Positions 36,665 to 45,063 are shown, counted from the first letter of the stretch. The stretch is 64,000 bases of DNA from Gemmatimonadota bacterium (GCA_050732875.1 JBOHRQ010000003.1:2821-66820); one strand, 5' to 3'. Numbers and translations are program-made. The notes: generated from the letters alone by a model not told the origin.

Positions 36665-38848
36665 CTACAGCTCGATCTGGACCAGCGACTCCTCCTTCTG
36701 CGCCTTCCGCTTGAGCACCATCTGCTCGTAGTACTCGCGGACCATCGCCGCCTCGCGGGCCGCCTTCTTGGCGGCCAGCCGCTCCTCATGGGCGTTCTGT
36801 GGGCCCTCCCCGCGATCGCGGACGCGACTGGCGTCGTCCTCGTTCACGACCAGCGCATGGTCGTAGTTCTCCAGCGGAACCGTCTTGCCTCCCGCGAAGA
36901 TCTCGTGACGCCCGTGCTCCTTGTACCACTCGGCCACCGTGGCGCTCTTGTGCATGTTCTCGATGATGTTGCGCCATCCGTGACCGGTGTTGTAGGCGCA
37001 GAACGAGATCTCGCCCTCCTGGGTGGCGTAGGGGATGATGCACATCTCGGTGCGCCGGAAGTCGTAGTTGAAGAGATCCTGGAACCACATGCCGGCGATG
37101 AAGAGGAAGTTCCACGGATCCTTCCGCCGCTCCCACACTCCGTCATGATCCAGCGAACCGTAATCATGACCCGTCAGCCCGTACGACTTGTCGAACTTCT
37201 TCAGGATGTCGATCAGCGTCAGGCTCGGCGGCCCCTGGAAGGGCTTGTAATTCTTCAGCAGCGCAAGCCCGATCATGAGGTTCGAGAACCAGCCTGCGCG
37301 GTTGGCGTCGGTGACCTTGCGGAAATCGTTCGCCAGCTCGGGGATGTCGAGGAATTGCGGGACGGGCGCGAACTCCCCGGTGTGCTTGTTGACCATCAGC
37401 GCGGTGCCGACCCCGCAGTTGGGATGGCATCCGCAGCTCACCTGTCCCCACTCGGCCTGCGGGCCGTGGACCATGTCCGCGAGATCCGAGAACGTCCCCA
37501 TCAGGGACAGTGGGAACCAGTCGCGCAGCGGCTCGGTGATCCCGAGCTGGCTCTTCACGTCGCGGGCCATGTGCGACAGGGTGTACCGCTGGCGCATGCG
37601 CCGCTCGGTCGTGATCTCGTCGTCGCGGCCGGTGAACGACACGGGCTGGAAGGCGATGAAGGCTACCTTCTTGGGATTGTCGAGAGCGAAACGAATGATC
37701 GGACCTACCTGATCGTTGTTGACGCCGTTGACGAGGGTGGTGACCAGGATCACCTGCACGCCCGCGTTGTACAGGTTGTCGATGGCCCTCAGCTTGACGT
37801 CGAACAGGTTGCCCACCTTGCGGTGGCTGTTCGCATCGTTGCCGATGCCGTCGAACTGCAGATAGCAGAAGCGCAAGCCCGCTTCCGAGCACGCCTGCGT
37901 GAACTCGGGGCTCTTCGCGAATTCGATGCCGTTGGAGGCGCACTGCACCGAGTTGTATCCGATCTCCCGGCAATGCTCGATGGCGCGCACGAAGTGCGGC
38001 GACAGGGTCGGCTCTCCGCCCGAGAACTGGATCGACATCTGCCGCCGGGGCTTGATCTGCAGCGCGTTGTCGAGGATCTCCTTGATCTCCTCCCATTCCA
38101 GCTCGTGGACGAAGCCGACCTGGTTCGCGTCCATGAAGCAGGGATCGCACATCATGTTGCACCGATTGGTCAGATCGACGGTGAGCACGGCCCCCCGGCC
38201 ATGCTTGATCGTGGACGAGCCGTGGTCGTGGAGCTTGCCGTCGTTGTGGGCCCGCAGGTCGCGACCCGGGAAGTTCATTTCGATCCACTGCAGGAAGTTG
38301 GCGTCGATCGCCATCAGGTCCTCGAAGCGTCCATGCTCCGGACACTCCTTGACCATCCACACCTGGCCGTCACGCTCGACGATCTGGGCCTTGATCTCGC
38401 CGACCTTTTCGTTGATCAGAACCTGGTAGTCCTCCTCGCCCTCGATGATGCGTTTCCGTGCCTCCACGACGCACTGCGGACACAGGGAATCGGTCTCGCG
38501 TGGCCAACCCAGCCGCGGCTTCGACTTCTCCCATGACTTGAGGAGCGGCTTGTCGCTCCATTTCGGGGTGAAAGAGGGATTCGGCCGGTACCGGTTGACG
38601 AGCTGGATGGCGCCGAAGGCAGCCGCGGCGACTTTGCAGAGCGCCCAGTCCACGCATTTGACGGCCTGCTTGCCGAGAGTCCTCTTCCCGCGGCCGTCCG
38701 GATCGAGGGCGCGGTCGGGGACCGTGAACGCACGGGTGTCGAACTCCCCGGGCTCGAGCTCGGCGACTGCCACGGCGCCGTCGTCATGGAGCGCCGTGCG
38801 CTGCGATTCCGAAGCCGGATCGACCACCTGCGTGTTGATCTTGATCAT
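36665..38848 (-). CDS. Large radical SAM enzyme of 727 aa. The architecture is atypical and the function is unknown.
   Basis: The canonical CX3CX2C motif (CNMMCDPC) sits about 230 aa into the protein. The N-terminus has paired Cys motifs (CVDWALC; CPQC...CPEHG), and further C-terminal Cys clusters occur (SCGCHPNCG; CIIPY...FCAYN). Confidence 0.8.
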   Translation of the reverse strand: MIKINTQVVDPASESQRTALHDDGAVAVAELEPGEFDTRAFTVPDRALDPDGRGKRTLGKQAVKCVDWALCKVAAAAFGAIQLVNRYRPNPSFTPKWSDKPLLKSWEKSKPRLGWPRETDSLCPQCVVEARKRIIEGEEDYQVLINEKVGEIKAQIVERDGQVWMVKECPEHGRFEDLMAIDANFLQWIEMNFPGRDLRAHNDGKLHDHGSSTIKHGRGAVLTVDLTNRCNMMCDPCFMDANQVGFVHELEWEEIKEILDNALQIKPRRQMSIQFSGGEPTLSPHFVRAIEHCREIGYNSVQCASNGIEFAKSPEFTQACSEAGLRFCYLQFDGIGNDANSHRKVGNLFDVKLRAIDNLYNAGVQVILVTTLVNGVNNDQVGPIIRFALDNPKKVAFIAFQPVSFTGRDDEITTERRMRQRYTLSHMARDVKSQLGITEPLRDWFPLSLMGTFSDLADMVHGPQAEWGQVSCGCHPNCGVGTALMVNKHTGEFAPVPQFLDIPELANDFRKVTDANRAGWFSNLMIGLALLKNYKPFQGPPSLTLIDILKKFDKSYGLTGHDYGSLDHDGVWERRKDPWNFLFIAGMWFQDLFNYDFRRTEMCIIPYATQEGEISFCAYNTGHGWRNIIENMHKSATVAEWYKEHGRHEIFAGGKTVPLENYDHALVVNEDDASRVRDRGEGPQNAHEERLAAKKAAREAAMVREYYEQMVLKRKAQKEESLVQIEL

Positions 38849-38945
38849 TCGTTCCTCCTTCGGCGAGAAGGGTCAGGAACTCAAGAATCCACCGGGATAG
38901 TAGCGGGTTCCAACAACGCTGTAAAGCGATCGGTTCGGAGCGCCT

Positions 38946-44083: not shown

Positions 44084-45063
44084 TCGGCCCCGGCCGACGC
44101 GACCTCGCGGTACCAGCGGACGAACGCCTCGAGACCCTCGTCGAGGCCGGTCCCGGGGTCGTACCCGAGCAGCCTTCGGGCACTCTCGATGTCGGCACAG
44201 GTCCGCTCGACGTCCCCCACCGGAAGCGGAAGACGCTCGATCCGCGCCTGGCGGCCGGTGGTCCGGGAGAGCGCCTCGATCAGATCGTTCAATCGCACCG
44301 GGACCGCTTCCCCCAGGTTGACGACCTCGAAGCCCTCCTCGCTCCGGACCCACCCCACGGACGCCACGACGCCGGCGACGATGTCCGAGAAGTACGTGTA
44401 GTCCCGTTCGCTCGTGCCGTCGCCGTAGACCTGGATCGGCAGCCCGTCCTCCATGAGACGCACGAAGCGGTGGATCGCCATGTCGGGACGCTGGCGAGGC
44501 CCGTAGACGGTGAAGAACCGCAGCGACATGACCGTGAAGCCATGCGCCGAGTGATACACGTGGCAGAGCTCCTCGCCGGCCTTCTTCGTCATCGCGTAGG
44601 GAGAGATGGGCCGATCGACGCGATCGGTTTCCCGGAGGGGCACGTCGGGCCTGTTGCCGTACACCGACGACGAGGAGCCGAACACCAGCCGGTGGCAGCC
44701 CGCTTCGCGCATCGCCTCCATGAGGATCACCGTGCCTTCGAGGTTGGTGCTCACGTATCCACAGGGGTCCTCCAGGGACGGTCGGACGCCGGCGCGCGCG
44801 CCGAGGTGGACGACGGCATCGTACGTCCCATCCGCGAAGAGTCCCGCGACGTCGGTCGGTTCCCGGAGATCCCCCTCCACCAGTCGGAACCGCTCGCTCT
44901 CTCGCAGGGCGGCGAGATTTCGTTCCTTGATTCTCCGGGGGTAGAATGGATCGAAGTTGTCGAAGGCCACCACTTCGTGGCCTTGCTCCACGAGCGACTC
45001 GCAGAGGTGGGACCCGATGAAGCCGGCCCCCCCGGTGACCAGGATCCGCCCTGTGCCGGTCAT
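44080..45063 (-). CDS. NAD-dependent epimerase/dehydratase, resembling UDP-glucuronate 4-epimerase.
   Basis: It has ILVTGGAGFIGSHL and the catalytic YAMTK. Its stop overlaps the start of the dehydrogenase. Confidence 0.8.
   Translation of the reverse strand: MTGTGRILVTGGAGFIGSHLCESLVEQGHEVVAFDNFDPFYPRRIKERNLAALRESERFRLVEGDLREPTDVAGLFADGTYDAVVHLGARAGVRPSLEDPCGYVSTNLEGTVILMEAMREAGCHRLVFGSSSSVYGNRPDVPLRETDRVDRPISPYAMTKKAGEELCHVYHSAHGFTVMSLRFFTVYGPRQRPDMAIHRFVRLMEDGLPIQVYGDGTSERDYTYFSDIVAGVVASVGWVRSEEGFEVVNLGEAVPVRLNDLIEALSRTTGRQARIERLPLPVGDVERTCADIESARRLLGYDPGTGLDEGLEAFVRWYREVASAGAE

Follow-up and report, generated by a model that had tools for sequence, protein, structure and literature searches.

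A Tes-like radical SAM enzyme and its radical SAM partner probably form a unit of their own beside sugar-nucleotide genes in Gemmatimonadota

Background

We analysed a 64-kb stretch of DNA (64,000 nucleotides, GC ~68%; 'the window' below is this whole stretch) from the core chromosome of a Gemmatimonadota metagenome-assembled genome, in which five genes follow one another on the minus strand: A (44080-45063), B (41309-44083), C (40210-41259), D (38946-40127) and E (36665-38848). A, B and C encode predicted enzymes of sugar-nucleotide biosynthesis, and D and E encode radical S-adenosylmethionine (SAM) enzymes. A preliminary description, made from the sequence alone, had taken the five genes to be a single envelope nucleotide-sugar cluster, in which the radical SAM enzymes would modify the sugar or a lipid or peptide attached to it. 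By comparing the genomic context of the homologs we arrive at a different reading that we hold to be probable, namely, that two units are juxtaposed here rather than one pathway: the sugar-nucleotide genes A-B-C and a lipid-directed radical SAM cassette, D-E, the second gene of which encodes a relative of the lipid-coupling enzyme Tes/GDGT-MAS (GDGT, glycerol dialkyl glycerol tetraether).

Layout of the locus

The coordinates of the five open reading frames (ORFs) are identical to those of the publicly called genes of this contig (locus L001); together, the two sets confirm a string of five contiguous minus-strand genes with one 4-nt overlap (A/B) and short gaps (49 nt between B and C, 82 nt between C and D, and 97 nt between D and E). 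Downstream of E the string ends at a bidirectional intrinsic terminator (~36585-36620), located between E and a convergent nfuA-like gene. The terminator consists of a perfect GC-rich hairpin, AAAAAACGGGCGACC-TGCGT-GGTCGCCCGTTTTT, with an A-run on one side and a T-run on the other; its predicted folding energy (dG -36.8 kcal/mol, z=-6.95; 0/200 shuffles fold as well) bears out the strong bidirectional terminator that had been noted at this end of the cluster. An Rfam scan of 35500-47600 recovered no riboswitch or other structured RNA at gathering score.

E belongs to a bacterial clade of Tes-like enzymes

E (36665-38848, minus strand) encodes a 727-aa protein that had been listed simply as a large radical SAM enzyme; that assignment holds, but it missed the homology of the protein to Tes. 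E matches the Tes family model NF045702, the rubredoxin-like ribbon of Tes (PF23545; 59 bits, cutoff 27) and the protein of structure 7TOL (phmmer E=2.7e-64, residues 151-645 of E against chain residues 35-515). The metal centres of Tes comprise a rubredoxin-like Fe, an N-domain [4Fe-4S] cluster, the radical SAM cluster and a C-domain [4Fe-4S] cluster that captures the first substrate radical, and GDGT-MAS has been crystallised with lipids bound (PMC13459092). The C-domain auxiliary cluster of Tes/GDGT-MAS is ligated by 3 Cys and 1 Met, and the N-domain cluster by 3 Cys and 1 His.

With the archaeal enzymes (M. jannaschii MJ0619, 7TOL, NF045702) E shares the rubredoxin-like ribbon, the CX3CX2C motif and Cys residues of the C-domain. 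In 88 clade sequences, E included, the rubredoxin-like ligands C123, C126, C169 and H172 (3 Cys + His), the radical SAM triad C230-x3-C234-x2-C237 and the C-domain residues C472/C474/H475/C478, C603 and C617 are all invariant, and C478, C603 and C617 align with Cys residues conserved in representatives of Tes proper. M602 was considered as the Met ligand of the C-domain cluster of E and was dropped, as the representatives of Tes proper have no Met at that position.

E also differs from archaeal Tes in several respects. C472 and C474 (CGCHPxCG) are extra relative to Tes proper. The Tes N-domain motif C-x3-C-x2-C-x2/3-H is present in all diverse representatives of Tes proper (at <=37% identity), whereas the segment of E that aligns with it, HNDGKLHDHGSSTIKHG, contains no Cys and carries an invariant His/Asp site, H201-x-D203-x3-H207-x-H209, instead. 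The clade moreover has strongly conserved N-terminal (~60-118, RPNPSFTPKWSDKPLLKSWEKSKP..GWPRETDSLCP) and C-terminal (646-727, a tail of 80 residues) extensions that archaeal Tes lacks and that may contact the membrane or a partner. A long helix, made up of residues 58-87, is among the few confidently modelled parts of an otherwise poor model of E. The substrate predicted for E is a fatty-acyl or alkyl lipid, not the isoprenoid lipid of archaeal Tes. By its sequence, E is a member of a distinct bacterial Tes-like clade, separate from archaeal Tes.

Homologs from Acidobacteriota, including Solibacteraceae, are 65-77% identical to E, and it is in these bacteria that Tes homologs have been proposed as synthases of branched GDGTs (brGDGTs) or iso-diabolic acid (PMC8941075, PMC10087280). 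The acidobacterial proteins in question (Zeng 2022, PMC8941075; Halamka 2022, PMC10087280) fall in the same clade as E and have the same invariant ligands, and their function is, likewise, only proposed. An experimentally proven bacterial route to tail-to-tail coupling is provided by the radical SAM enzyme Mss of Thermotoga/Thermoanaerobacter; compared here with D and E by its description, Mss reportedly represents a family separate from Tes that is limited to anaerobes (PMC13159169).

Conserved genome context of D and E

In total, 80 genomic loci with E homologs, 73 of which lie outside Gemmatimonadota, were searched with all proteins of the window. In addition, metagenomes were scanned with an alignment of the D family, and the neighbour test was repeated on those loci that have a D of >=70% identity and downstream sequence. 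Outside Gemmatimonadota, none of A, B, C and D had a homolog at a distance of up to 10 kb from E (0/73 loci). The association between D and E is of a different kind: E lies directly downstream of D at 7/7 genome and 15/15 metagenome loci (D >=70% identity), i.e. at 22/22 in all, with a spacing that ranges from a 4-nt overlap to ~120 nt.

Six of the D-E loci are without A, B and C, and they represent three independent contexts. At L084 the pair is placed between an OmpA gene and an ABC transporter; at L085, L086, L097 and L098 it is preceded by a TPR gene and followed by genes for pterin-4a-carbinolamine dehydratase, AsnB and GT4; at L096 it lies between a LuxR gene and a convergent gene for an acyl-AMP ligase-carrier-PlsC acyltransferase. 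The last-mentioned gene (L096:5105-7903, minus strand) encodes a protein of 932 aa, in which an AMP-dependent ligase, a carrier domain and a PlsC-type acyltransferase are fused, and is the only clearly lipid-metabolic neighbour that we found. The dehydratase gene follows immediately after the Tes-like gene in one lineage (L085:13686-14027, L086:10746-11087).

Within Gemmatimonadota the full order A-B-C-D-E recurs in ~10 loci. At L003 and L004 the order is ftsK-B-D-E, with A and C missing and D-E kept; some lineages can dispense with A and C. The preliminary description had asked whether the order of the five genes is conserved in relatives; that conservation does not extend beyond Gemmatimonadota, and what is conserved is the pair D-E.

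In a neighbour-joining tree the E proteins that are linked to D group together in a single clade, in which only L009 lacks D, and D accordingly appears to have been recruited once, in one E sub-clade. The acidobacterial Tes-like genes stand alone among housekeeping genes, whereas the Gemmatimonadota-type sub-clade gained D and, in Gemmatimonadota, also a conserved promoter-like element and a convergent nfuA (both described below). Clustering of the ORFs that neighbour E yielded no partner in more than 17 of the 80 loci; the frequent neighbours elsewhere (SurE, QueG, PCMT, DedA/VTT and PGM/PMM) are each confined to a sub-lineage. In the literature that was searched we did not find a partner such as D described for bacterial Tes-like enzymes. 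A separate observation concerns a conserved 409-aa protein, without a Pfam match, that is encoded at L031:6837-8066 (plus strand) and at 16 other Acidiferrales/Cybelea-type loci. Its gene is located on the same strand as the Tes-like gene, at a median of 362 nt upstream of it, in these 17 acidobacterial loci, and the protein could be a lineage-specific partner comparable to D.

Promoter-like elements and transcription units

Upstream of D, and overlapping the stop codon of C, lies a sigma-70-type promoter-like element, TTGACA-N18-TAGACT (40184-40213, minus strand), that agrees with the consensus at 10/12 positions. The corresponding pattern, TTGACN-N16-19-TAGA[CA]T, was matched a single time by every one of 17 Gemmatimonadota loci (both strands, 372 kb in total), and each of the 17 matches lies just in front of D; these 372 kb hold no other match, and the 64-kb window has a single occurrence. 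Both hexamers are kept and the spacer varies (N17/18), whatever gene precedes D: C in most loci, B in L003 and L004, and an unrelated gene in L008. The sequence evidence that D, or D-E, is a transcription unit of its own is strong.

A second promoter-like element, TTTACA-N17-TACTAT (38897-38925, minus strand), is found in the gap between D and E and is followed by a strong Shine-Dalgarno sequence for E, GAAGGAGG. Its hexamers (TTTACA-N17-TAnnAT) are kept, again with a variable spacer, in the sub-clade to which the window belongs (L002, L003, L004, L087 and L088). Other lineages have a 4-nt overlap of D with E.

These results bear directly on the single pathway that had been proposed, in which D and E act on the UDP (uridine diphosphate)-acidic-amino-sugar itself, and which we now regard as highly improbable. 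It would account for five contiguous and co-oriented genes with no detected terminator in between, for the recurrence of their order in ~10 Gemmatimonadota loci and for the BlsE-like fold of D (see below). Synteny within one phylum is, however, expected from shared ancestry alone, and over its entire length E shows homology to an enzyme that couples lipids and whose crystals had lipids bound (PMC13459092). To this are added the 0/73 loci outside Gemmatimonadota that link E to A, B or C, the occurrence of D-E without these genes in three independent contexts and the conserved promoter-like element in front of D. The preliminary description had itself named an unrelated, documented role and a consistent lack of association with nucleotide-sugar genes in other genomes as findings that would undo the functional link; for E both were found, because Tes has a documented and unrelated role, the tail-to-tail C-C coupling of lipids, and the association is absent from all 73 loci outside Gemmatimonadota. 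Membership of the radical SAM genes in a sugar pathway is thus not supported.

D is a twitch/truncated-SPASM-like partner of E

D (38946-40127, minus strand) encodes a 393-aa radical SAM protein (PF04055, 70 bits) with a twitch/truncated-SPASM-like C-terminal domain. The core is marked by the invariant residues C83/C87/C90 (CX3CX2C) and A126-G-G-E-P130 (the GGEP SAM-binding motif). In the C-terminal part only five Cys residues are invariant, namely, C303, C321 and C354-x2-C357-x3-C361, against seven in a canonical SPASM domain, and no match to the Pfam SPASM domain (PF13186) was obtained at E<=0.001. The structure model has a predicted local distance difference test (pLDDT) score of 80, with residues 1-45 disordered. 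The closest structural neighbour is BlsE (PDB 7VOB), the radical decarboxylase of cytosyl-glucuronic acid (score 25.9; 284/327 residues aligned), followed by SkfB (23.4), by anSME, SuiB and MoaA (about 21 each), by PqqE (19.5) and by Tes (18.1); CteB is among the neighbours as well. As modelled, D is a twitch/truncated-SPASM-class enzyme. The label 'SPASM-type' that had been given to it is therefore right as far as the structural neighbours (SPASM/twitch) are concerned, but it goes too far in view of the missing Pfam match and the five C-terminal Cys residues.

With BlsE as its best structural match, D could handle a uronic-acid sugar and may have a role on a sugar head group. The match is genuine evidence in this direction, but the margin is small, the sequences are 17% identical, the phmmer value (6e-6) is in the same range as for MoaA and SkfB, and the constant in the genomic surroundings of D is E. 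The gene for BlsE is part of a cluster for a nucleoside antibiotic; that for D is linked to a Tes-like gene. Membership of D in a BlsE-type family is thus not what we found, the sequence being no closer to BlsE than to MoaA or SkfB and six D-E loci being without sugar-nucleotide genes. The likeness nevertheless feeds what we see as the main rival of a division into two units, which we consider unlikely: E would make a membrane-spanning lipid, a glycosyltransferase encoded elsewhere would add to it a uronic or N-acetyl-uronic sugar supplied by A, B and C (plus ugd), and D would remodel that head group by decarboxylation, ring contraction or epimerisation. The archaeal calditol synthase Cds, which acts on the hexose head group of GDGTs, would be a parallel, and BlsE, as a decarboxylase of a uronic-acid nucleoside, would provide the chemistry. 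Of the targets that the preliminary description had in mind for the radical SAM enzymes, the sugar pathway as such found no support; it had mentioned an 'attached lipid' and 'cross-linking' too, which agree with what is proposed here, and in view of its likeness to BlsE, D alone might have a sugar (head-group) substrate.

In terms of function, the closest precedent for D is Gms, the archaeal synthase of glycerol monoalkyl glycerol tetraethers (GMGTs), a SPASM radical SAM enzyme that acts on the product of Tes (PMC11186832) and that, like D, combines a radical SAM core with a C-terminal auxiliary-cluster domain. Gms, compared here by its description, is longer than 420 aa and has an N-terminal six-helix domain, a full SPASM domain and two fully ligated clusters (PMC11186832). 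D is unlikely to be its ortholog, because the N-terminus of D is disordered and only five C-terminal Cys residues are present.

Several of the structural neighbours of D (SkfB, SuiB, PqqE and CteB) and many other D-like folds are maturases of ribosomally synthesised and post-translationally modified peptides (RiPPs), which raises a peptide or protein, next to a pterin or another cofactor, as a substrate for D-E that is neither lipid nor sugar; we judge this improbable. The lack of one Tes cluster in E does leave room for a changed function. For a pterin one might point to the name '7,8-dihydro-6-hydroxymethylpterin dimethyltransferase' that the JGI (Joint Genome Institute) gave to some E homologs, to the older annotation of MJ0619 as a hydroxymethylpterin methylase and to the dehydratase gene right after E in L085 and L086. 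That adjacency is limited to one lineage, however, and for MJ0619 structural and enzymatic studies of GDGT-MAS have since displaced the pterin annotation (PMC13459092). We rejected the idea that D is a RiPP maturase. No small ORF in the gaps is credible or conserved, and several lineages, with D overlapping E by 4 nt, have no room for one; an N-terminal domain resembling a RiPP recognition element (RRE) is missing from D as well, its residues 1-45 being disordered.

The family of D is small (374 hits); one member, similar in type to the D of L085, carries the label Candidatus Udaeobacter. Paralogs of D from Planctomycetota/Phycisphaerae (~48% identity) are not adjacent to E. They are preceded, on the same strand, by the gene for a conserved ~460-aa protein (L124:2521-3915, plus strand, and ~39 other loci among L100-L166; L082:8379-9752) that has sub-threshold B12-binding and Radical_SAM matches, lacks CX3CX2C and looks like a pseudo-radical-SAM protein. 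A 'GrsA homolog' has been reported from Phycisphaerae. Taken together, these sequences suggest that D-like proteins habitually pair with a larger protein of the radical SAM fold.

The sugar-nucleotide genes and the intein in B

A (44080-45063, minus strand) encodes a short-chain dehydrogenase/reductase (SDR) resembling UDP-glucuronate 4-epimerase (PF01370, 210 bits), and an alternative ATG at 45078 abuts the stop codon of ftsK. Its best solved relatives are of the UDP-glucuronate 4-epimerase type: 5U4Q (9.7e-71), 6ZL6 (3e-64) and MoeE5, 6KV9 (6e-55). B (41309-44083, minus strand), which begins with a GTG in a 4-nt overlap with the stop codon of A, encodes a nucleoside diphosphate (NDP)-N-acetylhexosamine-type 6-dehydrogenase of the WbpA/WecC/TviB class that is interrupted by an intein. 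B matches TIGR03026 with 394 bits unspliced and 414 bits after in-silico splicing (cutoff 189.8), and PF03721, PF00984 and PF03720 are all above their cutoffs; the best solved relatives of the spliced protein are the UDP-ManNAc dehydrogenase 4R16 (1e-66), Cap5O and the NDP-GalNAcA dehydrogenase 3G79. Judged from its three UDPG_MGDP_dh domains and from the catalytic Cys that splicing restores, B is an NDP-sugar 6-dehydrogenase. C (40210-41259, minus strand) is a WbpP/TviC-like UDP-HexNAc(A) C4-epimerase, again an SDR, that matches WbpP (1SB8, 1.3e-103) as well as WbgU and the capsular protein 10KE (2.5e-110); its score against NF011728 (TviC) is 366 bits, under the cutoff of 760.

An equivalog cutoff is reached by none of the three; the family assignments made earlier are reasonable on the basis of these matches, and the enzyme structures and TIGR03026 uphold the view that A, B and C take part in the synthesis of acidic (amino) sugar nucleotides. 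Of the three SDRs in that account two remain, A and C; B is a member of the UDP-glucose/GDP-mannose dehydrogenase family. Homology to the TviB/TviC and WbpA/WbpP pairs and to UDP-glucuronate 4-epimerases is clear for B, C and A, and the predicted products are UDP-GalNAcA- or ManNAcA-type sugars (N-acetylgalactosaminuronic and N-acetylmannosaminuronic acid, respectively) and UDP-GalA (galacturonic acid). In contrast to TviB/TviC- and WbpA/WbpP-type systems, A, B and C have no glycosyltransferase, flippase or polymerase nearby. As the preliminary description had already remarked, the stretch of the five genes holds no glycosyltransferase or flippase, which supports its suggestion that the sugar products enter a pathway whose genes are located elsewhere.

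Genes for nucleotide-sugar precursors continue beyond nfuA, at 30414-35790 (minus strand): hldE, a TuaD-like ugd, a UXS/ArnA-like SDR, udk, gmd and DUF4254. The sugar neighbourhood is thereby ~2x the length of the cluster as described before, and D-E-nfuA splits it.

The intein in B, which carries a LAGLIDADG homing endonuclease, extends over 41816-43240 (minus strand), i.e. residues 282-756 of B (475 aa, in frame), and is inserted between GWGGH and the catalytic-Cys motif CIPIDP. It starts with CQDGE and ends with VSHN, followed by C, so that Cys1, the C-terminal His-Asn and a +1 Cys that is also the catalytic Cys of the dehydrogenase are all in place. Profile scores are above cutoff (PF14528, 36 bits against 22.5; TIGR01443, 28.9 bits against 15.6), and in the B ortholog of L002 (88-95% identical) GWGGH-CIPIDP is uninterrupted, the intein being cleanly absent at the exact site. 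The intein noted in the preliminary description is hence authentic. Its relatives number only 20 in a collection of 5.8 billion proteins, all inside NDP-sugar dehydrogenases, and their hosts are scattered (Gemmatimonadota, Eisenbacteria and Chloroflexota). Homing inteins known from NDP-sugar dehydrogenases are of the same class-1/LAGLIDADG type, sit at the catalytic Cys and are rare and sporadic in bacteria. By these sequence features the B intein is a class-1, site-specific homing intein, a selfish passenger that is uninformative on the logic of the pathway.

Two further observations concern inteins. Among the NCBIfam models, the B intein scores highest with NF045703, the intein-containing archaeal Tes (85.8 bits), ahead of PolII and RNA polymerase inteins. 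With a Tes-like gene 3 kb away this is a curious coincidence; the match probably reflects a generic intein/LAGLIDADG similarity, because all 20 close relatives of the intein sit in NDP-sugar dehydrogenases. Furthermore, the contig of the D-E pair L096 carries a gene for a ribonucleotide reductase large subunit with a LAGLIDADG intein (L096:8048-11404, plus strand) that is unrelated to D-E.

The convergent nfuA-like gene and the remainder of the window

The gene convergent with E, at 35906-36544 (plus strand), encodes an NfuA-like Fe-S cluster carrier (PF01106 and PF01521; TIGR03341, 126 bits). It adjoins E, convergently and at a distance of 30-400 nt, in all Gemmatimonadota-type loci that have downstream sequence. 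Outside Gemmatimonadota an NfuA-type gene is found beside E in 4/73 loci (L011, L016, L020 and L036), in three arrangements, where ~0.3 would be expected by chance. NfuA regenerates the sacrificial auxiliary cluster of the radical SAM enzyme lipoyl synthase (PMC9585516), and by analogy with LipA/NfuA the adjacency suggests a dedicated link for the supply or repair of clusters.

The rest of the window is of a housekeeping nature (NusA, GuaA, AccD, UvrB, RelA, Rho, SecA, EF-P, AccBC, FtsK, SurA, a polyprenyl synthase, MetH and urocanase); Pfam scans of the ORF calls showed no glycan-assembly or ether-lipid cluster among the remaining genes. Two long ORFs, 10920-12782 (plus strand, 620 aa) and 7760-8818 (minus strand, 352 aa), have a coding-type GC content at third codon positions and no Pfam match at E<=1e-5.

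Discussion

The conserved adjacency of D and E, the promoter-like element in front of D and the lack of a conserved link with the sugar genes together fit best with two juxtaposed units. In the first, A, B and C, downstream of ftsK, would make UDP-uronic and UDP-N-acetyl-hexosaminuronic acids, the precursors from which an envelope glycan is assembled elsewhere, with the homing intein of B splicing out at the catalytic cysteine. In the second, by homology with GDGT-MAS, E would use 5'-deoxyadenosyl radicals to remove H from two lipid alkyl chains at their terminal carbons, parking the first radical on the auxiliary Fe-S cluster of its C-terminal domain before a tail-to-tail C-C bond is formed; the product would be a membrane-spanning lipid of the iso-diabolic-acid or brGDGT type. 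D would then carry out a second radical step on the same lipid, either Gms-like or in the form of head-group remodelling. The Fe-S clusters of D-E may be delivered or repaired by the product of the convergent nfuA. The bacterial lipid substrate of E, the chemistry of D and the role of NfuA are what we infer here.

A number of observations weigh against assigning a lipid to D and E. E misses two defining features of Tes: with 323 bits, over an alignment of residues 119-634, it remains below the curated equivalog cutoff of 450 for NF045702, and the N-domain Cys triad is found in 0/88 clade members, being absent from E as well as from P0288 and P0292. Its chemistry could therefore differ from that of Tes. 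The structure model of E is poor (pLDDT 46; predicted template modelling score, pTM, 0.39; a shallow alignment of 12 sequences) and unusable for fold comparison. Synthesis of membrane-spanning lipids by bacterial Tes homologs has not been shown biochemically (PMC11868695), and we found no report in the literature of membrane-spanning lipids in Gemmatimonadota. The top structural match of D is a sugar-acid enzyme, and glycan genes are located within 10 kb of D-E in three of four contexts. Finally, the promoter before D is a prediction from its sequence, and no terminator was detected between C and D, so that read-through co-transcription with the sugar genes is possible.

With these points in mind, we put forward a more specific version of the two-unit reading tentatively, as possible though doubtful: that Gemmatimonadota and a few related lineages owe a modified membrane-spanning lipid to D-E, a cassette complete in itself and with its own promoter, in which E couples the tails and D performs a second radical step. 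That step, for which no bacterial counterpart is described, would either cross-link the chains in the manner of Gms or remodel, in the manner of Cds or BlsE, a uronic head group supplied through the adjacent genes A, B and C.

The result overturns nothing. That bacterial Tes homologs are candidates was already known, and what is new is the clade-defining loss of the N-domain cluster, the obligate partner D and the conserved promoter-like element. For annotation there is a lesson in that tidy, co-oriented strings of genes within one phylum can be mistaken for pathways. The brGDGTs are among the most widely used proxies for palaeotemperature and pH, and their producers and biosynthetic enzymes are largely unknown; outside the anaerobes, bacterial Tes homologs are the leading but unproven candidates. 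If the proposed function of D-E is correct, the locus would be a compact, testable entry to the bacterial brGDGT pathway and its producers, the two-gene cassette being easy to express and to knock out. A Gms-like D would be a candidate source of the orphan H-shaped branched tetraethers, and if D-E does yield membrane-spanning lipids, then the Gemmatimonadota, which are abundant in soil, would become a new candidate source of soil tetraethers.

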